From positions 13,082,001 through 13,146,000 of the forward strand of contig OZ024761.1 in assembly GCA_964016885.1 (NCBI GenBank): 64,000 nt of DNA, written 5' to 3'. Under the pieces are notes generated by a model. That model was given only the letters and a program-made list of their open reading frames with translations. It did not search any database and had not been told where the DNA came from. Positions within the stretch are counted from its first letter, which is position 1, and each line of letters begins with the position of its first letter. A program made the position numbers and the translations under genes. The DNA comes from Eledone cirrhosa. Lineage: Eukaryota. Positions 24,058 to 51,632 of this stretch are shown here, in pieces.

Positions 24058-25499
24058 ATGTATACAGCTTTGACTGCTATTTCTAGCATAAAAACCAAAA
24101 ACCGGAAGAGGAGAAAATTGAAAAACTTCTTCTTTTCCCCCCTCGAACTTTTCAAACCTATTAAAAATCCACAAAATCCTTTTAATATTGTCGTTTTCGT
24201 CCATAGCAAGTGTTGTTTCGAAATAATTTTTGCACCCATTTTTGCGATTAAGTAAAGACAGAGTTATCGTTCTTGAGATTTCGTCCTGGTGAAATTTAAG
24301 GAACTGATGTCGCTAAAGCGTCAACTTATTTACCCGCACTGTTGCATCATGGGAGCGGTTTGGGTTGATTTTTTTTTTAAATAAAAAGGCGAGTTTTTTA
24401 ATTTACTCCTTGCCACCGTGTTTGTTGTTTGATATAAATAAATAAATAAAAGAATTAATTCCATTCCACACCTCCCTGTAATCTGAATATCTAATTACCA
24501 TGGTGTCGGGAGTGGTTAATGTAAACAAAGGGCAATATGTAATCGCTACACCGGCCTCATAATAATTACTATTGTTCTCCTATTTTTCTTCAAAGTGATT
24601 TCGCTTGTTTATTTCATAGAATCATGGCTAATTAATTTAAAGCCACTCACTGACGATCTCCGGCCTCTCACCCTCAGATGTTCTGTCTTCTACAACCCCT
24701 TTTAAAACAATGAAAGGTGCATTCAACGATGTAGATGTGGGTACCTTGATAATCATATAAACACAGGATGGTCACGGCAGGTATACCATCGATTACACAC
24801 ATGTCGGGTCATCTTGTCTTGCTCGTTCAAGACCTGTGAATAAAAGTAAACAACAGCAACACGTCTCTACGTCTACGCTCCACTTGCTAGAAATAGAAGC
24901 CAGGTTTCCTAAGAATTACGGAGGTGAATTAGCTGTGACACATGTAAATACAATCTTTTATATTTTATCTGTGTAGGAAGATATTAACAATGTTTTTACT
25001 TTTGATTATGTATATGTAAATATATGTCTTGATCGCTCAGGTCTGATTTGTCAATGAAAGTAAACAACAGCTACCTTATGAAATTTTCACCATTTAAACC
25101 CCAACAAAATGCATACAGACATATATAAGTATATATATATACTCGAAATTATATATATATACGCCAAATTTTTACACGGGGGACAAACAGTTCCCATAAC
25201 CTGAATAGGTCCTCTGAGAACCGACTTATGTATATAGAATCAATGAGATTCCAGCGTTGACCAATATGTGTATATATGACTATCTAAAATTACATCTTCT
25301 AATGTGTCCTTCATTATTTTAAAACGTGGCGAGCGATAAATATTTGGCTGCTATTTCCAGCAATAATTCTAATGTCACTTTTGTGTGAATATCTCGTAAT
25401 TAGTATATTCTCTTCTAAATCTTTCTTGTTTGTTGGGGCTTGTTTAAGACGTCAGCCCCCGTCGGGCTTGACCCAGCAGAAGTACGAAGGTTGGCTGAC

Positions 25500-25780
25500 T
25501 ATGAAGGACTGATGCAAGAGCTGGGAAATTTTGCATGAATTAATTTCAAGCCTTCTTATTAATAACTGCATTGTTTCTTTCCAAGTAAACTGACATCTGA
25601 CTGTTGAAAGAGTTCTTCAAATGTAATTAGTAATGACCTCTTGAAAATGGACAACATTTGGCATCGTGGTATTATCAAGTACCTGTAGAAAAGGGGTTTA
25701 TCCCCCAAGGACATTCATGTTGACAAGGTTGCTACATTAAGGGATGACACTCCAGCTTTATCAACAATTCAACAGGCTCT
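25500..25780 (+). mobile_element. Mariner 5' relic
   Basis: KGLSPKDIHVDKVATLRDDTPALST resembles a mariner HTH N-terminus. Confidence 0.5.
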
Positions 25781-26389
25781 GGTCCACAATTATTGTCTCT
25801 CCTCCTTCTGCACATTATACCTCTACTACAATGGTCTCTGCTCCTCCCCAACCCTAAATATGCTGTTCCCTCTCTACCTCTACTACAGTGGTCTCTGCTT
25901 CTCCCCAGCCCCTAAATATGCCGTTCTCTCTGCCTATTCTATCTCTACTACTGTAGTCCCTGCTCCTCAGAGGTTGCTGGTCTCCACTGAAACACTCATC
26001 AGTTATGTTGAAAGCCTCTGGTCTATATAGTCACTACATTGAAGACATCCAACTCTGTTTTCTTCAAACCCATCATAACTTAATTCCTCTGCTGCTGTAG
26101 CTGAAACAATGGTTATGTTTTTCACTCACCATGGATACCTTTCCATCCTGTTCTAAGTTACCCTTACCAGTGTCTGTGGAGTCCATTGCTCTACCAATCT
26201 TCCCCCTTCACACGACAATCACCTTCTGTTATTTTTCCCCTTTCAAAAAACCTACAACCATAAGAAACTCCTTGTCCACAGTTCCTGAAAAAGTTTCGGG
26301 ATAAAATAACTGGTGTAAACCTCCTTTGAGATGTAACCTTGTAGGAGGTCAGTGTATATATATATATATGTAAGTGTAAAGAGAGCTGG

Positions 26390-26800
26390 ATGATGATCAA
26401 CGAGATTACAGGAAGGAAGAGAGGGAGTTTGAGTTAGATCTGGGGATAAGAAGAGGCTGGACCATTTTAAGACCCTACTAGGAGAGCCACCTTCGACAGC
26501 CCAGAATACCAGAGATCAGACAGCTGTTTGAGGAACTGGATATTGAGACAGGACCTTCGCCAGAGAGGGGCTTCAGCGAACCAAGAAGATCAAGACCCAT
26601 GGAGAGGCATCAAAAGTGATGAAGGGGTGTGATTTTGATGATATCATCCTGGAGTTCTGTAACCAGGCATTGGAGAAAGTTGCCCTTGATCACTAACATC
26701 ATCTCAGTACCAAAGAAGGGAGATCTTTCTAACATGAACTACAGGGGAATCTCATTGATGTCACTTGTGGCAAAGCCCCTCAACAGAATCCAGCCCGAGA
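26390..26800 (+). mobile_element. Degraded LINE reverse-transcriptase fragment
   Basis: IISVPKKGDLSNMNYRGISLMSLVAK motif; frameshifted. Confidence 0.7.
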
Positions 26801-28472
26801 TGTATATATATATATATTATAAGAATTTTCTGTACTATGGACATATATTGTTTCCTTTATTTAAGTGTTGTGTTTGCACCACCTTAATCCATAAACTTTG
26901 GTGTAAGCAGGATTAAGCACTCTATGTATCCAACAGTGGTATTGGATTGCTTATAACACATTGAAGTATCAGTGTATATATATAGTTTTTTTTTTTTGTC
27001 CCTTTCATTTCATAAAACCAAATACCTAGTTAGCTACAACTACACTGTACTAAACACACACTATATATATACTATGTATGATGATGTCCAAGGATGATTC
27101 AAGTTGGCATTAGTTACATTCTAGAAATATCCCATATTGCTCAATGCACACTCTGAAGGTTTCCTTTTGTCTTCCTCACATGAAACAGAACTATCAGAGT
27201 CATTCTTTTTCACCGATGAATCAAGAACATCATAAAGTTGTACATGAGTTGGCAGTGAATTTTGATTGCTCCACCAAGTCCTATGATAATGAACCTAACT
27301 ACAATATCTCGCAGTTCTAGCATCACTTCTTCAAAGCCAGCCTATGAGCTTTTCAGCTGATCCTCTTTTGTAGAGAAGAATGTTTATATAAATGTAGCTT
27401 TGTGTGTCTGACTAGAGAAGATTTAGTTGTGTTTATTTGACAAGGTAAGTATTTATATATAACTGTATCTATGTGTAAGTCTAGAGTAGGTTTAATTTCT
27501 TAGAAGAGGTATATATAAATGTAGCTTTATATGTTATGTGTGTAGAGAGAGAAGATGTTTTGTTTATTAGACAAAGTAAGTATGTATATATGAATGTAAC
27601 AGAATGCCTTCAGTTCTCTGAATTAAAATCCTGCTGAGGTCAACTTTGCCTTTCATCCATTTGAGGTTGATAAAACAAAGTACCAGTCTAGTATTGAGGT
27701 TGATTCTTCTGTTTCTCTGGAAGAAATCTGCTGTATTCAAACCTGGAGAGGAGATGGGTCTGCCAGGTTTTAAAAAGTGCCCTAGAAATACTGTATGTCA
27801 ATGTGTGGCCTGTATGACTCCCTTAGGAGTTGCAGGTCCATGCATACATGTAACTCTCACAGTTTGGAAGTTCTGCATTCATCACATTGCTCCAGTACTC
27901 ACAGCCGAGGAGTTAGTCCTGTGGTAGACCAGCGTACTATCCAGGGAGAGTCTTGTACTCTCAGACACTTAACACCAAGTAAACTGGTCATAAGCTGAGA
28001 ACAGTCTTTATATATTATACTAAATTTTGGTCTAATCACATATCGATGAAGGAAATCATGGTCTTAAGATGCATATTACCAAAATAGATAATTAGTGATT
28101 GATACTAATTACTAAGATCGATGGTTTGCATTTTTTATTTTCTGTATTAACATAAACATTACTACCTTGAAGTAAATATACTTATTGTTCTGTATATATA
28201 TATGTATTAAATACTAGTAGTTTAAACTTGTTACATATAGAAACGGGATGAAAGTAAGGTAACACGGTCGTGAAAAAGTAATTTCTTTCTGAAAATATTT
28301 CGGAGACGAAGTATAATATTGATAATTATTCGGTAGAGATCTCAACTCTCACCATACGAAATATATTCAGAAAGTGATATTTCTCCACGCCCTCAGTTAT
28401 CTCGTCTTCATTCCGTTTCTATATATATATATTTTTAATAAATAAAATTCTAACTATAAGTATGACTAATTT

Positions 28473-28634
28473 ACTCAGTAGCGTTACGCTCTGTGCATGG
28501 CGCTGCACGTAACGTTTCGGGCTTCGCTGTCGTACTTCGGTATGGCATGACCATTCTATGTGTCTGAAGATCGAATCGTTGCGGCGGCAGCCCGGCTTTA
28601 TGCTGGCCTGCGTCCCCACCTCGCATTGAGTTTT
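28473..28634 (+). ncRNA. Putative structured ncRNA, unknown family, copy 1 (diverged)
   Basis: TATAAG at 28455. Stems GTGCA/TGCAC, TGTCGTAC-TTCG-GTATGGCA, GCAG.CCGGC-TTTAT-GCTGG.CTGC and a terminal ACTCAGT..GCG/CGCATTGAGT pairing; ends in TTTT. GC island in a strongly AT-rich background. Confidence 0.5.
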
Positions 28635-29140
28635 ACTAAAAAATTCGCCGAGAGTTATCGTTTGAATTACTTGCCCCTGATTGGAACTATTCTCGTTTGT
28701 TGTCATTCTTCTTTATTGAGTTAAACTGTTAACATCGTTTGGATTTACTCGTGTAATTTGATAGAATCGGTCTGGATATTATACTAATGGTCAGAGGTAT
28801 GTAATGTTTTATTTGCCGTATATACACTCACAGACATACATTATTCTATATGCCTTTCATCCTTATGGGGTCGATAAAATAAAGTACCAGTAATGCATTG
28901 GATAATTGCTGGCCTTGTGCCAAAAGTAGAAACAATTATTCTATATACGGAAAGATTCTAGAGACGTACATATTGTTTTATTTAAACCTAAATACACACA
29001 CAAAACTAGATTTATATATATAAATGTTCTTGAACTGAGGTAAAATAGCCTCTAATTTACCTATACGAACGCTTTATTTGCCATGTATATTTTAATTCAT
29101 TGCTAAACACTCGAAAATACAGTCTTAGATATATATTAAC

Positions 29141-30576
29141 ATTCTTTAGTGTATGCATTCACCTCTATAATCCATACACTGGAAGAAACGTTTCCTATCT
29201 AGATCAATATACACATATAAAGCTACATTTATATATACACCTTCATTCTTCTAAAGAGGTATGTAATGTTTTAGTTGTCCCTTAAATTCATCGATAAACA
29301 CGTAGTTATTCCTGAGACACAAGAATATATTTCACTACCCTTCATATACTGGAGGAATGTTAGAGACGTATATGTATAATATAACCGTCTTTTTACTAAG
29401 AATAATAACTAAAACCCCTTCATACTCAGGAAAACTAAACATTCTATCTATATACACCGCCTTCTGTCTTATTCATAGTGGTACATTGTTAGAAGTAACT
29501 AACTAAGCCTTCTCTCGACACTATCATTGCATACTTTAAAATCCACTTCTTTATATACTATATTTAGGTTTAATCAATACATATATTGATGATTGGAATC
29601 ATGGTCTTAAGATTACCCAAATCGATACTAACTATTACAAATACAGATCTCTCTAAGGCTATGTTACCTACATATTAATTGTTCTGAAAAGATGCATCAG
29701 TCTTCTCCTCTATGGAGCAGAAACGTGGCCCCTCACAAAGACAATTGACAGCAGTGCCCTGAGGACCATCACGGCCTTACTCTCGTTCAACGCAGTAGCA
29801 CCTGGTCGGCTCTACCCATGATGATGCCGGTCTAGTCTAACAAGAATAGATGTACAAAATACTCGAATATAAGGTGACCCTCCACCCTATCTTATGTCTG
29901 AGAAGTGGGCAAAAATGCGAACCTTATTTACGTAGAATTTGAAGTTGGCGAAAATGGTCCTTGCTACAAAATATTGACTCCCTATATAAGTCAACCCCTG
30001 ACTACATATTCCCTGGCTTCTATTCGTGTATATCCCGTTATATATGTACAAAACACTAGCAGTTCCTTAATGGCTATATATCCCGTTATATTTATATAGA
30101 AAGAAAGCGAGATAACACTCGGAATATGTCGTGTTATCTCGCTTTCTTTCCGTTTCTTTTTTTTTTTAAAAAGAAGGAAAATGTTAGCTATAAGTATGCC
30201 TACTTGACTCTGTAGAATTGCGGCTTGTGCGTGGCGCTGCACGTAGCGTTTCTGGCTTCGCTCTCGTACTTAGGTATGGCATGACCATTCTATGTGTTTG
30301 AAGTTCGAATTGTTGCGGGGGTCGGCCGGGACCACAGCAGGCTGGCTTTATGCTGGCCTGCTCTCCCCCTCGCATGAGTTTTTGCCAAACAATTTGACGA
30401 GAGTTATCTCCCCTTAATTGGAATTATCTGCCCTTTGTTGACATTGAACTACTTCCGGTTTGTGGAACTCTTCTTACTTTGTTGATATTTCTCTTCAGTG
30501 TATGGAAGCTGTAACATCATTCTATTTACTCTGGGACTATTAACGATATCTGTTTGGATTTTATGTTCGTGTAAAG
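29141..30576 (+). repeat. Left arm of 1,436-bp inverted duplication
   Basis: Reverse-complement match to 35774-37209; paired coordinates sum to 66350 at all anchors checked; about 7 substitutions seen by eye. Confidence 0.92.
30206..30383 (+). ncRNA. Putative structured ncRNA, copy 2 (two hairpin-breaking substitutions; possibly decaying)
   Basis: TATAAG at 30189, TTTTT at 30379-30383. Same stems as copy 3 except G>C at 30263 and C>A at 30272 in the UUCG hairpin. Confidence 0.42.
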
Positions 30577-33500
30577 TTTTATTTGCCGTATATACACACA
30601 CATTATTGAGACACAAAAGTAAGTTGCCATGTCTTTTAAAGAAACAAAACTAAATATATACACGCAGCTACCTCTTCTAACTAAACATACATGTTACCCT
30701 CCTCTATTATGAAACAAAACTAAGTATGATCTGTATATATACACACCTCTTCTAACATGTTACAACTAAATCTTCTCTCGATACTATATACATACTTGTA
30801 AGGAAATATAACCAAGCTTCCTCTCTATACACATTTTATCTTCTGTATATAAACTTTATACCTGAATACACACACAGATATTCTATATACAAGAAGACAC
30901 TTTTTCACGTAAATACACAAACACTTCAGGCATATTTATGTATTAGCCGTAAATTTATTCTAAACCATGTAGAGGAAGAATCCTGGGGACATATGTACAC
31001 ATGAAGCTATATTCATATATAAACGGTCTCCCTTCTATCATAACAGATACTTATGAGGCGCAATATACAAACTTGTTCATACTGGAATAAGACATGAAAC
31101 TAAACCTTCTCTAGACATATAAATATAGAAGCTAAACCATAGTTATATCTAACGAAGCATGGTAGCTCCATTACTTTGCCGTAAGACTCCTTACTACTAC
31201 TTTTTAGCATCCGCACCTGCTTGATAGCTACATCACCCATATATAAACGTTCTTCACTAGATACAAAACTAAACCTTTATATATACACAACTAACCTATT
31301 TTATATTCCTAAGGAACAGCACCAGACCTGGAGACTACTACAACCCTATCTCAAGAAGAAAGGTAAATAAATTGTGAAATAAAAGAATAAACCAGTATTT
31401 TCCTTTGTTGCCTTATTATTTACTCCCTGTATATATACACACACTAGACACCTCTTACACTGTAGGAAGACAAAAATCTTCTGTCACTGTATACTAGATT
31501 CATATTATATAAATTATTTCCTAGATACACACCTATTAGAAACAAGCCATCTCTATATACAGGTAAATAACATCAATGTAGACATGTCTGTATATAAGAA
31601 ACTGTATTCTATAGAATATATCTAAACCCACATTGTGTGTCTCTTTATATTATACACGTGTATGTAGAAACCTGGAAGTGAACATCATACATATAAGATA
31701 AGAGGTTTTGATCTGTACATACATATCAATACATTCTCGCTAGATACTACACATACGTCTCTTAGGAAACTACTACTATTGTTCTTCTAGTTGTGTATAA
31801 GGATCTCACAGTAGAACGTGTACATGCTTCCTAAGAAGTAAGAGAGCTAACTGTATAAATACAAAGAAATTTAGTGTTCTTTACATACACACATATATAG
31901 AAAAACTGTATTCAATATGACACACAAAGCTTACTTCATGTCTATAATATACTTTCTTCTCTATATTGGAAGAAGTACCTCCATTATATATTGAAGTTGT
32001 GTTCAATAGAGTACAGTATGTAGAACCATATGTACGCAGTTACCCTTTTCTTTCTAGGCAGGCATACTCACCATATAAACACTTTTGTGTATATAAAGCA
32101 TATCTTCATTGTAAATTTAGAAGTTACACTACACAGATATAAAGACAACAACCTACATACATATTAGTACCCTTATATCTCTACACTACTGTATTATATA
32201 AATATAGCTAAGGAATTAAAGATGTATGTATATACATACGTATATATATACATATGCATGTATATATATACATACGTATATATATACATACACATCTATG
32301 TATATATACATACACATGTAGGTATATATATATAAATACATATGTATGTTTATATATATATATACATACATTTGTATATATACATATATACGTACGTATG
32401 TATGTATATATACGTACGTACGTATATATACATACGTACGTATGTATGTACATACATATGTATATATAAATACATACAGATGTATGTATTTATATATACA
32501 TATATATGTATGTATACATACATATGTATGTATACATATATACATACGGATGTATATATAAATACATATGTATACACACATACGTATGTATATATACACA
32601 TGTATGTATACATACGTATGTATATATACATACGTATATATACATGCATGCGTATGTATATATACATACATACGTATATATATACATACGTATGTATGTA
32701 TACATACATACGAATGTATACATACATACGTATGTATACATACATACGTATGTATATATACATATGTGTGTATGTATACATACATGTATACACACATACG
32801 TATGTATATATATACATACGTATGTACACATACACATGTATGTATACATGCGTATGTATATATGCATATATAAATACATATGTATGTATATACACATACG
32901 TATGTATATATACATACATGTATATATACACATACGTATGTATATATACATACGTATGTATATATATACATACATATGTATGTACACATACGTATGTATA
33001 CATACATATGTATGTATACATACACATGTATGTATACATACACATGTATACATACATGTGTATGTATACATACACATGTATGTATACATGCGTATGTATA
33101 TATACATACACATGTATGCATATATACAAACGTATGTATATATATACATACATACGTATGTATATATAAATACATACATATGTGTATATACATATGTATG
33201 TATATATACATATGTATGTATATATACATATGTATGTATATACGTATGTATATATACATACGTATGTCTATATAGATATACATACGTATGTATCTATATA
33301 AACATACATGTATATATACATACGCATGTATACATACATATGCATGTACACATACGTATGTATACATACACATGTATGTATATATACGTATGTATATATG
33401 CATATATACATACGTATGTATATATATACACGTATGTATATATGCATACATACGTATGCATATATAAATATATACATATGTATGTATTTATATATACATA

Positions 33501-35773
33501 CGTATGTAAATATACATATGTATGTATATACACATACGTATGTATATATACATACGTATGTCTATATAGATATATAGACATACGTATGTATCTATATATA
33601 CATACATATGTATGTATACATACATACGTATGTATATATACATACACATGTATGTATATATATATACATACGTATGTATATATACAAACGTATGCATATA
33701 TACAAACGTATGTATACATACATACGTATGTATATATACATACATATGTATGTTTATATAAATATAGCTAAGGAGTTGAACTTTTTTATCTTGATAGAGA
33801 CAAGTATGTGTATTCTATAGGATACTATTACCTTAAAACCATGTGTGTATATACACTTACTTCTATAGAATCCATACATATTAACACCCTTCTATCTCTA
33901 GGCATATGTATACATACAGAAAGAAATGGCCTCACTAGAATACTGCATTATATACATTACTTTCATGAAAGATGTTTCGAACTGAATTCATACTTCTATT
34001 CCTATATACATACTGGGAGAGATATAGAATACAAATCTATTCTATATACAGAAGGAAATAAACTTACTAGAATACTGTATATATACACATTATAAATGTT
34101 TATAATATGAAACTTCTTTATTAATACCTCTATACCTACTGGTGGGTATGAGAGAGATATAGATTATCATCATAACCCTGTATATATAGATATTATAACC
34201 TCTTACAGGAGATATAGAATACCTATATACACAGAAAGAAATAAACTTGCTAGGATTACTGTATTATATATATATACAGTTTCCATTCTCAAAGAAACTT
34301 TTCTATAGCACCACACTTACTTCTTTCAGTAAGAAGGGTGTTTCTTACTGGGATTCTATAGTGTACATACACATTAATTAATCTATTCTATATATACACT
34401 TCTTTCAAGAAGGATGTTTCTCACTAATTACATAATTGAATTCTCTCGCATGTTAATACCTTTTTATCTCTAGGCATGTGTTTAACAATCCACTAGTTAT
34501 ATATACACAGCTGTTAATTCCTATATATTTAATGTGAAAGAAAGTTAAACGATCTACATGTAAGATACTACCTGTGTATATATATAAGAAACGAAAATGT
34601 GAAATAAAGATCAATAAATAAACTACATTTTGTTGTTGGAGTTATTTTATTTCTTGAGACGACTGTGTGTATTTACACACTAAGTTGAGCTGGCGGAGAT
34701 CTTCAACATACCTGGAAAGAAGCAGAGGGTATTAATAAAAACAATCCAGATTACACAGCTCTAACATCAATACTTTTCTAGAGGCAGAAATTAAACCTCT
34801 TTATCATGAACAGTTTAGTTTCTTAGGAGAGTGGGTATAGGGCTGTGAAATACAGTTTCTTATATGCCTCTGGATAAGGTATTACTGTATATATGGGTTT
34901 TTTTTTTATTATAGAGAAGGATAGTAAATATAAGCCTTCTAGATGTTCAAGAGGAGTCTCTACATACAAAAAGTAGATTCTTTGCTGTGTACACACAATA
35001 TCTAGTAGTAAGTTTCTATATATATAGAAGTGTATTATATACACACATGTGTACAATATTTATATAACAAGGCAGTGTATTCTATAAAAAACTGTATGTA
35101 TGGGGAGTTTTTTTCCTCTATTGAGAAGGATAGTGAATATAATGTCTTCTACATACAAAAAAATAGATGCCTTGATAAAATATCCAGAGTTTTATGTAAG
35201 TATCCTCGGGAAAAGTAGTAGAGATGAGGGTTTTAACTTTGCCTTGTGTGTATGTAGATGCTGCATATATACGATACTTCGAAGTAAGTGTGTTTATGTA
35301 TAGAGAGAGGGTCTGTATTCTATATACTACAGTTTCTGATATAGCTCCGGATACTGTGTATAATGAGGAGATATATCTTTCTTCTAAGTAAGTATATACA
35401 GAGAAGGTGTAATAGAGATACGATTATAATATAAATATATAGTTGATATGATGTGTGCAAGAGAGAATGCTGAGGTGGTGATGCCGAGGTAACTCGACGT
35501 AGAAATTACGATGGTATAGTATAGAGGAAAGTAACATGTATGTTTAGTTAGAAGAGGTAGCTGCGTGTATATATTATTTATTTTGTTTTGTTTCTCGGAA
35601 GGAGGTTTAGTTCTGTGAAGAGTGTTTAGAATAAATTTAAAAGACATGGCAACTAAGACACTACAAGAATGTATTTATATTGAAGAATTAAATGTATGTA
35701 TATTTCCAAGATAGTGAAATGTATTTTTGTGTCTCAATAATATTCGTGAGTGTGAATAAAACTTTACATACCT

Positions 35774-37209
35774 CTTTACACGAACATAAAATCCAAACAG
35801 ATATCGTTAATAGTCCCAGAGTAAATAGAATGATGTTACAGCTTCCATACACTGAAGAGAAATGTCAACAAAGTAAGAAGAGTTCCACAAACCGGAAGTA
35901 GTTCAATGTCAACAAAGGGCAGATAATTCCAATTAAGGGGAGATAACTCTCGTCAAATTGTTTGGCAAAAACTCATGCGAGGGGGAGAGCAGGCCAGCAT
36001 AAAGCCAGCCTGCTGTGGTCCCGGCCGACCCCCGCAACAATTCGAACTTCAAACACATAGAATGGTCATGCCATACCGAAGTACGACAGCGAAGCCAGAA
36101 ACGCTACGTGCAGCGCCACGCACAAGCCGCAATTCTACAGAGTCAAATAGGCATACTTATAGCTAACATTTTCCTTCTTTTTAAAAAAAAAAAGAAACGG
36201 AAAGAAAGCGAGATAACACGACATATTCCGAGTGTTATCTCGCTTTCTTTCTATATAAATATAACGGGATATATAGCCATTAAGGAACTGCTAGTGTTTT
36301 GTACATATATAACGGGATATACACGAATAGAAGCCAGGGAATATGTAGTCAGGGGTTGACTTATATAGGGAGTCAATATTTTGTAGCAAGGACCATTTTC
36401 GCCAACTTCAAATTCTACGTAAATAAGGTTCGCATTTTTGCCCACTTCTCAGACATAAGATAGGGAGGAGGGTCACCTTATATTCGAGTATTTTGTACAT
36501 CTATTCTTGTTAGACTAGACCGGCATCATCATGGGTAGAGCCGACCAGGTGCTACTGCGTTGAACGAGAGTAAGGCTGTGATGGTCCTCAGGGCACTGCT
36601 GTCAATCGTCTTTGTGAGGGGCCACGTTTCTGCTCCATAGAGGAGAAGACTGATGCATCTTTTCAGAACAATTAATATGTAGGTAACATAGCCTTAGAGA
36701 GATCTGTATTTGTAATAGTTAGTATCGATTTGGGTAATCTTAAGACCATGATTCCAATCATCAATATATGTATTGATTAAACCTAAATATAGTATATAAA
36801 GAAGTGGATTTTAAAGTATGCAATGATAGTGTCGAGAGAAGGCTTAGTTAGTTACTTCTAACAATGTACCACTATGAATAAGACAGAAGGCGGTGTATAT
36901 AGATAGAATGTTTAGTTTTCCTGAGTATGAAGGGGTTTTAGTTATTATTCTTAGTAAAAAGACGGTTATATTATACATATACGTCTCTAACATTCCTCCA
37001 GTATATGAAGGGTAGTGAAATATATTCTTGTGTCTCAGGAATAACTACGTGTTTATCGATGAATTTAAGGGACAACTAAAACATTACATACCTCTTTAGA
37101 AGAATGAAGGTGTATATATAAATGTAGCTTTATATGTGTATATTGATCTAGATAGGAAACGTTTCTTCCAGTGTATGGATTATAGAGGTGAATGCATACA
37201 CTAAAGAAT
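35774..37209 (-). repeat. Right arm of 1,436-bp inverted duplication
   Basis: Mirror ORFs in the track (29905..30099+ / 36251..36445-; 30184..30375- / 35975..36166+) confirm the inversion. Confidence 0.92.
35967..36144 (-). ncRNA. Putative structured ncRNA, copy 3 (intact)
   Basis: Reverse complement of copy 2 with intact TGTCGTAC-TTCG-GTATGGCA hairpin, extra GGTC-GGCCGG-GACC hairpin, GCAGGCTGGC-TTTAT-GCTGGCCTGC hairpin, TATA-like box and T5 end. Confidence 0.5.
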
Positions 37210-49468: not shown

Positions 49469-49549
49469 GATAAAATAAAGTACCAGTAATGCACTGGGTA
49501 ATTGCTGGCCTTGTTCCAAAAGTAGAAACAATTATATATATATATATAT

Positions 49550-51632
49550 CATCGACCCAATAGAGGGACCAGCAGTGTTAGTCGAGGGGAGTATAATAAG
49601 TAAGGCAATCAAGGATATGAAGACGGGTAAGGCGGCTGGGCCTTCGGAAATAGTTGCTGAGATGCTGAAGGCATCTGGCACGGTGGGACACACCATGGTC
49701 ACCCGCATAGTTAACCAAGTCGTACAGAATGGGGTTGTTCCGAAGGACTGGCATAGCAGCATCATCGTTAACTGTTATAAGGGTAAAGGAGACGCCCTAG
49801 ATAGGAGTAACTATAGAGGCATTAAATTGATCGACCAGGTCATGAAGGTCACGGAAAAAGTAATAGCACAACTAATCAGAGAGAGAATTGACCTAGATGA
49901 AATGCAGTTCGGGTTTGTGTCAGGCAAAAGTACCACAGACGCTCTTTTCATTGTACGACAACTACAGGAGAAGTACCTAGCTAAAGGTAAACCCCTCTAC
50001 TTAGCTTTTGTCGACTTGGAGAAAGCCTTCGACAGAGTCCCCCGCTCCATTATCTGGTGGGCTCTTAGAAAACTAGGCGTTGACGAATGGCTTGTGAGAG
50101 CTATACAAGCCATGTATAAAGAAACAGTCAGCAAGGTTAGAATTAACAACGAATATAGTGAAGAGTTTAGCGTAAAAGTTGGCGTCCATCAGGGCTCTGT
50201 TCTCAGCCCCCTACTATTTATTATTGCCCTTCAGGCTATAACAGAGGAGTTCAAGACCGGCTGCCCATGGGAACTCCTATACGCAGACGACCTGACACTC
50301 ATAGCGGAATCAATGGCCGAGCTAGAGAAGAAATTCCAAACATGGAAGCACGGCCTAGAATCAAAAGGCCTTAAAATTAACCTGGCTAAGACTAAAGTTC
50401 TAGTTTGTAGGAAAGAAAATAAGGCGGCGGTCCCTTCTGGGAAATGGTCGTGCTCGGTGTGTAGGAAAGGCGTAGGTAGAAACTCCATTTTATGTCCTAA
50501 ATGCAAAGTATGGGTGCATAAAAGATGTAGTGGGATCACAGGTAAGCTAACTAAGAACATAGATTTTACATGTGGCCGGTGCTCTGGTGCAATAAGTAGC
50601 AGCAAGTGCCCACAAAATACTAGCTCTTTCAATTGCGCAGAGGGTTCTATAGAAATAGTGGACAGTTTCCGTTACCTGGGTGATAAAATCAGCAGTGGGG
50701 GAGGGTGCTCTGAAAGTACAGTAGCTAGAGTCAGAACTGGTTGGAAAAAGTTCAGAGAACTTATACCACTATTAGCTGCTAAAGGGTTCTCCCTAAAAAT
50801 GAAAGGCAGGTTGTACGATGCCTGCATACGAACAGCAATGTTGCATGGCAGTGAGACCTGGGCATTGTGTGCAGAAGATATACGCAGACTAGAGAGGAAC
50901 GAAGCTTGCATGCTCCGCTGGATGTGAAACAGTAATATACGTGAACGGCAAAGCATAAACGAACTAAGGAAAAAATTAGAAATAAGAGGGATCAGATGTT
51001 GTTTACTCGAGAGAAGGCTACGTTGGTATGGACACGTGATGCGCATGAAAGTCGATAGCTGTATAACAAAGTGCAGGGCAATAAAGATAGACGGTAGCCA
51101 CGGAATAGGCAGACCTAGAAAAACCTGGGACGAGCTGATAAACTCCGACCTCACACACTTACACCTCTCCAAGACAATGTCACTGGACCGAGACCTTTGG
51201 CGGTACTCAGTAACAGAGAAGACCCGCCTTACCTAAATACATAGTAAAACCTACTACAGCCAGTAGGCATCTAACAAAATAAACCCCCCCCCCCGTCCCA
51301 CCACCCCCAACCCATCCACGCCACCCCGTTCTATGTAAAGTTGTGTTGGTGCCACACCATCCAGGCCGAAACAAATGAGATCGTGTAGGTGTCACGACAA
51401 AAAAACACACAGTCCACGCTGTAATGTGGCCGTGTAGGCAACACGGTAAAAACCTCCCAGACCCACACTGTAAATGTGGTTGGTGTTAGGAAGGGCATCC
51501 AACTGTAGAAAACCTGCCAGACAGTCCTATGCGAGCAAGACAATCACTCTTGCCTCAAGTGGGACTACCCCCGTCCAAACCCATGCAAGCGTGGAACACG
51601 GACGTTAAACGGTGATGATGATGATGATGATG
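49550..51632 (+). mobile_element. 5'-truncated RTE-clade LINE: RT with Cys-rich insertion, one nonsense codon, 3'UTR and (GAT)n tail
   Basis: ORF 49575-50927 has RT motifs (NYRGIKL, QFGF, AFVDLEKAFDRV, GVHQGSVLSP, LYADD, YLG) and a CxxC..CxxC..H..C cluster. TGA at 50925-50927 replaces a Cys codon and the frame continues to 51236 (RRLRWYGHV, GRPRKTW). Confidence 0.93.

Follow-up and report, generated by a model that had tools for sequence, protein, structure and literature searches.

A dispersed family of at least 168 candidate genes for a structured RNA polymerase III transcript in Eledone cirrhosa

In a stretch of 64,000 nucleotides of the Eledone cirrhosa genome (contig OZ024761.1, positions 13,082,001 to 13,146,000, hereafter the window), an initial annotation had noticed three GC-rich elements and proposed that they represent a three-copy gene for a structured RNA. 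Our analysis indicates that these elements belong to a family of at least 168 sequences, which probably codes for a structured RNA polymerase III (Pol III) RNA of likely 150-185 nt and has likely spread by multi-kb DNA duplication and not by reverse transcription. The best reading of the comparisons is that of a lineage-specific family of predicted structured Pol III RNAs, apparently undescribed and unrelated in sequence to any RNA tested.

The elements in the window

The three elements, each preceded by CTATAAGTATG and each ending in GAG followed by four or five T, are present in the sequence and can be aligned. However, not all three are independent: copies 2 and 3 form the two arms of a single 1488-bp inverted duplication with 98.3% identity (29141-30621 vs. 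37209-35722) and differ at 2 positions within the RNA, and copy 1 has 76-77% identity to them, confined to 28396-28659. Because copies 2 and 3 are the arms of one duplication, there are two sequence types, not three. The predicted RNAs are shorter at the 5' end than the 160-180 nt first delimited. The features are:

28455..28462, + strand: TATA-like box TATAAGTA of copy 1, read from the sequence; -31/-24 of the predicted start, in register with signal recognition particle (SRP) RNA genes
28486..28634, + strand: copy 1 (subfamily A), predicted 149-nt RNA with T4 end; start predicted
28498-28508 and 28568-28578, + strand: A-like and B-like boxes of copy 1
30099..30157, unstranded: upstream inverted repeat (DNA hairpin), present in imperfect form in older copies; not a U6-type proximal sequence element (PSE)
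30189..30196, + strand: TATA-like box of copy 2, read from the sequence
30220..30383, + strand: copy 2 (subfamily B), predicted 164-nt RNA with T5 end
30232-30242 and 30302-30312, + strand: A-like and B-like boxes of copy 2
35967..36130, - strand: copy 3 (subfamily B), predicted 164-nt RNA (36130-35967), convergent with copy 2
36118-36108 and 36048-36038, - strand: A-like and B-like boxes of copy 3
36154..36161, - strand: TATA-like box of copy 3, read from the sequence
29141..30621, + strand: left arm of the inverted duplication, 98.3% identical to 35722-37209
35722..37209, - strand: right arm of the inverted duplication
32225..33766, unstranded: TA-rich simple-repeat array, the centre between convergent copies 2 and 3
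24156..37209, unstranded: non-coding duplicon holding A, B and inverted B, with colinear pieces elsewhere

From about 24156 onwards, the duplicon is colinear, with 85-97% identity, at six of the seven other loci compared (C22, C23 and C25), and at one C23 locus it forms a larger palindrome around an 88-bp array that the window also contains, at 7881-9219. Across 12 regions, no shared open reading frame (ORF) was found except for read-through of the element and fragments of long interspersed elements (LINEs), and no transposase or viral ORF was shared.

Family size and distribution

The elements had been regarded as locally amplified, in three copies, but at least 168 related sequences are present genome-wide. 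The genome searched comprised 3.0 Gb, and the counts are lower bounds, since more distant members may be missed. An 18-nt B-box motif gave 168 exact matches and a 21-nt promoter motif 143, with no match to the reversed control in either case. Among the first 30 loci with the B-box motif, 29 were true family members, and in DNA searches, in which the best 40 of 231, 40 of 280 and 40 of 249 candidates were scored, all of those scored were matches. Boxes, T-runs and substitutions were examined in 123 distinct copies, the partial copy L133 being left out of the alignment. The box TATAAGTA is exact in 93 of these copies, the A-like box is found with at most one mismatch in 103, and a T4 run follows the B box within 115 nt in 111 and precedes it in 11. 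Truncated copies and many 3'-half deletions or broken pairs are also present in the family.

In a tree of 100 distinct copies, old members with long branches are spread across many chromosomes. The two young subfamilies of the tree, A with copy 1 and B with copies 2 and 3, have expanded on C22, C23 and C25. Among the first 100 matches listed, 47 neighbour pairs lie less than 20 kb apart (25 convergent, 5 divergent and 17 on the same strand), the convergent ones being spaced by 3-17 kb, mostly 5-10 kb. Copies often form convergent pairs with a spacing of 3-10 kb that sit inside multi-kb non-coding duplicons. About 200 bp upstream and 300-400 bp downstream are common to the old copies, and of 30 loci, 16 carry the upstream and 23 the downstream flank along with the element. 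When 14 convergent pairs were compared, the two arms were mutually closest among the loci compared in nine, with one tie and four pairs in which they were not. Since arms are mutually closest in loci that share the whole layout, arm-to-arm conversion is suggested.

The initial annotation had considered that dispersed copies with target-site duplications would point to a mobile element such as a short interspersed element (SINE). The copies are indeed many and dispersed, but most have homologous flanks and no tails, and thus do not look like SINE insertions. SINE insertion was therefore rejected, with one possible exception, L179. This copy (L179:1428-1560, at C4:37.04 Mb) is flank-less, starts about 9 nt into the predicted RNA and runs straight into the 3' tail of a local SINE; it is possibly a retroposed chimera or a double truncation. 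Two further observations concern individual members. In the subfamily of L189, L190 and L191, about 20 bp upstream including the TATAAGTA box are missing and the RNA part is largely intact. In L134 and L140 (C20 pairs), a GC-rich repeat lies at the centre of two palindromes, and one of its frames reads Pro/Gly/Asp-rich repeats.

Promoter layout

Both a TATA box near -30 and an oligo-T end are present in the element, and the Pol III gene layout proposed for it is supported. The type 3 promoter that had been assigned to it did not hold. In this genome, three distinct upstream classes of U6 genes have in common, besides a TATA at -30, the block TATGC..AAT.AG...CCT, located at about -78 to -60, and no such PSE-like block was found upstream of the element on comparison with these three classes. 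Because this block is absent, A- and B-like boxes are internal and the TATAAGTA box stands in the register of SRP genes, the gene is predicted to be of type 2, with an upstream box, rather than of type 3.

The start at G30220 was fixed before the SRP genes were compared. It is agreed upon by the TATAAGTA box, the start lying 31 nt downstream, and by the predicted closing stem, which begins two bases later. At offset 0, the 45 nt upstream match those of the SRP genes L091 and L093, from two diverged upstream classes, at 24 and 23 positions, respectively (background 13±3), scores reached by only 0.14% and 0.07% of positions. No match in the same register was found for three U6, one 7SK and 13 tRNA-like loci. 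One of two vault RNA classes matched at 25 of 45 positions at offset -4, the best of 13 offsets; since the upstream match is thus common to a vault class, it may be a general grammar of internal-promoter genes with an upstream box.

The A-like box TGGCG(C/A)TGCAC, at +12/+13, has 3 mismatches to TRGYnnARBGG and ends in C, as do 7SL-type boxes (PMC7279448). The B-like box AG(T/A)TCGAATC agrees with GGTTCRAnYCY at 9 of 11 positions in subfamily B and 8 of 11 in A. Boxes at -31/-24 are described, along with the A and B box consensus, for 4.5SH (TTCAAGTA) and 7SL genes (PMC7279448), and the box of the element resembles both.

A tandem U6 array with a period of about 1.8 kb was observed at C19:31.78-31.84 Mb (L077-L086). 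In 5 of 10 units examined, a SINE stands immediately before the TATA box, in place of the PSE-like block.

Comparison with known RNAs and repeats

The absence of a known RNA family, claimed initially by eye, was borne out by Rfam: no match reached the gathering score in the window, and four narrower scans gave no relevant match over the element at E<=10. ARAGORN reported no tRNA at its default threshold; there is no cloverleaf, and calls at lowered threshold (540 over 149 loci) are noise; a tRNA identity was discarded. An initiator-tRNA motif had 0 matches anywhere in the genome, a result that has no bearing on an initiator-tRNA ancestry. Genuine U6, SRP (C12), 7SK and vault (C3) genes were located elsewhere in the genome. 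The RNA body has no significant similarity to the SRP, 7SK, U6 and tRNA-like genes of this genome, nor to its vault RNAs (30-494 of 500 shuffles as good), and a covariance model of the family found only the three window copies in 12 sources including the U6, SRP, 7SK and vault loci. Ancestry from 7SL was rejected, as similarity was significant only with the upstream region included (6 and 0 of 500) and not for the RNA body. Neither RF00006 at E<=10 nor the vault genes of this genome matched, and the vault RNA candidate was dropped. Likewise, descent from a SINE was rejected, the head of the local tRNA-SINE having no hidden Markov model (HMM) match, with 39-98 of 500 shuffles as good.

In the regions examined, no hallmarks of a DNA transposon (fixed termini, target-site duplication, transposase partner) were found. 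A hammerhead-type core was looked for by eye, and neither helix II nor a cleavage triplet was seen; Rfam gave no ribozyme match. The core motif had 0 matches in viral contigs. Two metagenome matches were discarded, as they hold only a 22-nt pattern in GC-rich, coding-like DNA. No description of the family was found by title and abstract in the literature, a search that leaves Repbase, Dfam and most subscription papers uncovered, so that it may be catalogued as an unclassified repeat.

Several known RNA genes were encountered in these comparisons. In a tandem vault RNA cluster at C3:221.18-221.25 Mb (L166-L175), 14 matches exceed the Rfam gathering score of 34 bits, the best reaching 43.3, and fall into two sequence classes with T-run ends. 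Vault RNAs are known mainly from deuterostomes, and no paper on a cephalopod vault RNA was found in the literature searched. A tandem array of more than 20 SRP RNA genes with three upstream classes lies at C12:42.10-42.13 and 42.86 Mb (L087-L098). Dispersed, near-identical tRNA-like copies (L152, L154-L162) have flanks in common and differing anticodons, and are probably a tRNA-derived repeat.

Fold and selection on structure

Copies 1, 2 and 3 are more stably folded than their dinucleotide shuffles, with z values of -3.59, -1.98 and -2.62 and with 0, 5 and 2 of 200 shuffles as good. The recurrent helices are a central helix of 18 bp, two hairpins at its end and a 3' hairpin of 10 bp. A closing stem is predicted in both A and B, with matching changes on both strands. 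In 33 representative copies, 91% of cells pair, and RNAalifold gave a weak consensus of -7 kcal/mol.

The hairpins described initially were retained in part. The cUUCGg tetraloop is found in copies 1 and 3 but not in copy 2, where private changes at 30263 and 30272 have removed it, and older family members carry UUAU or UUAA loops at this position. The segment of the extra hairpin in copies 2 and 3 is absent from copy 1, as had been noticed, and from its subfamily, and is what remains of a longer stretch present in older copies; the predicted folds of copies 2 and 3 do not contain the hairpin itself. There is competition between the 5' hairpin quoted initially and the closing stem, which joins the 5' end to the bases before the T-run, and folds from the predicted start favour the closing stem. 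In the 3' hairpin, next to the change described as structure-preserving, a G-C pair has become a C-C break in the subfamily of copy 1. Bulges were mended separately by subfamily, a G being gained in the UUCG hairpin (A and B) and an A in the next hairpin (L105 lineage).

On a tree of the 123 copies, the ratio of substitution events per column was 0.41-0.67 for RNA against flank and 0.18-0.76 for paired against other RNA columns in each of the four branch classes; the RNA/flank ratio was 0.52 on terminal and 0.57 on recent branches. In 22 C-G pairs, C>T changes, which keep a U-G pair, numbered 68 vs. 32 for G>A changes, which break it (14 pairs up and 5 down, Wilcoxon p 0.018). Scored by root state, sites in unpaired RNA and in the flanks were symmetric (3.2 vs. 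4.0, 4.3 vs. 4.4 and 4.8 vs. 4.3 per site). These substitution patterns suggest some selection on RNA pairing; the structure at the RNA level that had been claimed is thus supported in this respect and not by covariation. They provide moderate evidence that part of the family is under selection for a putative RNA, whereas many copies are decaying.

Interpretation and alternative explanations

Several points weigh against a family of structured Pol III RNAs. No transcript was seen in four sequencing runs compared with 28000-31000, none of which is listed as RNA. A 151-nt contig in one of them (X1) lies inside copy 2 (30224-30374, 2 differences) with none on the flanks. It was given no weight, as most records of X1 are only as long as a single read and the run was picked for holding the element; runs X2-X4 cover all 30 bins of 28000-31000, which is DNA-like. 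The A-like box is atypical, departing from the tRNA consensus at three positions, the B-like box is found at +83 and not at +54-64, and the third SRP upstream class matches at only 18 of 45 positions. Of 33 copies, only 20 have a more favourable fold on the predicted strand than on the complementary one (mean z -1.84 vs. -1.31). The covariation put forward initially was not significant, with 5 pairs changed on both sides vs. 4.5±1.5 in shuffles (246 of 500), in a comparison of the 33 representative copies, which are paralogues only and give low power, and the clearest double change is at two CpGs, where deamination is possible. Pair-breaking events outnumber pair-keeping ones over all branches (159 vs. 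125), and of 5 changes on the long branches that lead to A and B, 3 were pair-breaking. The C>T asymmetry depends on the control, because the untranscribed upstream hairpin also leans to C>T, more weakly (35 vs. 23), and flanks scored by column-majority base are skewed as well (C>T 7.9 vs. G>A 3.8 per site). Conservation is inflated, because the element was the search query and the helices were chosen from the same sequences, and the AT-rich flanks align badly, which inflates rate contrasts.

In the mechanism that we infer, covering Pol III transcription, RNA ends, fold, fold-back duplication and conversion, TFIIIC would bind the internal A-like (+13) and B-like (+83) boxes and the TATAAGTA box at -31/-24 would place TFIIIB. 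Pol III would start at a G 31 nt after the box and stop at the T4-T5 run. The RNA ends would close in a stem, the long central helix would carry two hairpins at a three-way junction, and a 3' hairpin would form as well; the end pairing might give stability, as for 4.5SI (PMC3440375). Convergent pairs would likely arise by fold-back duplication at TA-rich centres and then be homogenised by arm-to-arm conversion. Some copies are likely functional sources, and many are likely decaying. Given all this, the likeliest role, which we suggest only tentatively, would be that proteins binding double-stranded RNA are held by the RNA as a decoy or scaffold, in the manner of snaR and NF90. As outright speculation, the family could supply an abundant Pol III RNA that is specific to cephalopods and folded into long helices rich in G-U pairs, its dose being kept high by palindromic gene pairs that correct themselves. 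Such an RNA could be an endogenous decoy for these proteins, ADAR for example, like VA RNA or snaR, and tune RNA editing or double-stranded RNA sensing.

Among the alternatives, the one that we take most seriously, though we think it improbable, is that a once-functional Pol III gene has left copies of which nearly all, or even all, are now carried silently by an unstable duplicon, their structure being inherited and fold-back at TA-rich repeats driving the amplification. The many broken pairs, 3'-half deletions and truncated copies would fit this, as would the 13-kb colinear flanks amplified together with the element and the lack of significant covariation. However, the slower change of stems extends to terminal and recent branches, and the promoter motif is intact in 143 copies. 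It is less probable still that a non-autonomous mobile element (a DNA element of fold-back or Helentron-like type, or the source gene of a SINE) contains the GC-rich element internally or near one end, the RNA, if made, serving the spread of the mobile element. Dispersal over many chromosomes, the convergent orientation of 25 of the 47 neighbour pairs among the first 100 matches listed and the C4 copy L179 running into a SINE tail would be expected from such an element. On the other side, the flanks examined showed neither shared termini nor a target-site duplication, no transposase or viral ORF is shared by the 12 regions, the head of the local tRNA-SINE shows no homology by HMM or shuffles, and the terminator directly follows the structured part.

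A diverged SRP (7SL) or vault RNA paralogue, duplicated with its upstream flank and then remodelled, is the least likely of these explanations. It would account for the upstream register with SRP genes, for TGGCG at +12/+13 in both and for a short motif likeness to the Rfam vault consensus (AGcGGUU..ACuUCg and ucGA..CgCggg). Against it, the RNA bodies show no significant similarity, a search of the SRP and vault loci with the family model gave no match, neither Rfam model matches the element at E<=10, and the upstream match, being common to a vault class, may reflect general promoter grammar. We prefer a family of probable Pol III RNA genes that has likely spread by DNA duplication.

Other sequences in the window

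A tandem array of 88 bp (15 copies, 95%) occupies 7881-9219 and 16090-16300 and adjoins the same duplicon at four of the seven other loci compared. A 3' fragment of a high-copy SINE lies at 28851-28940. A 482-aa frame at 49479-50927 is presumably a reverse-transcriptase-like LINE, and a short fragment at 25689-25780 is what we take to be mariner-like.

Comparison with known systems

The lineage-specific Pol III RNAs that we found described (4.5SH, 4.5SI, snaR, BC1 and BC200) are all mammalian and traced to SINEs or 7SL. If the present reading is true, small RNA genes would have originated and multiplied independently in an invertebrate, in a family with more than 160 copies, no detectable parent, a 7SL-type promoter and palindromic pairs. 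If the element is only a passenger, it would still mark an unusual fold-back duplicon on several small chromosomes.

Adenovirus VA and Epstein-Barr virus (EBV) EBER genes are of similar length, with two related genes in tandem. They have type 2 promoters with upstream elements (PMC7279448). They differ in that no viral gene lies around the family element and its core motif is not matched in viral contigs. The SRP (7SL) and vault RNA genes of this genome share with the family an upstream box in the same register, an internal promoter, a T-run end and clustered copies, but no significant sequence or model similarity.

The snaR (small NF90-associated RNA) family is a set of lineage-restricted, structured Pol III RNA genes of African great apes, spread by segmental duplication in kb-sized duplicons (PMC3045588). 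The likeness lies in lineage-restricted Pol III genes carried in duplicons, the present ones being predicted from genomic sequence. In contrast, snaR is about 117 nt long and Alu-derived, whereas the family described here has predicted RNAs of 150-185 nt without detectable 7SL or SINE ancestry and is found on many chromosomes, often in convergent pairs. The rodent RNA 4.5SH has a type 2 promoter, a -31/-24 TATA-like box and hundreds of copies, each in a 4-5 kb repeat (PMC7279448), and 4.5SI, also of rodents, is stabilised by paired ends (PMC3440375). Both resemble the family in their type 2 layout and -31/-24 box (TTCAAGTA in 4.5SH vs. TATAAGTA here). They differ in being 94-98 nt long, derived from B1 or probably B2 SINEs and arranged in tandem head to tail, while no SINE parent was found here. 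The family thus resembles snaR or 4.5SH in anatomy and is a member of neither.

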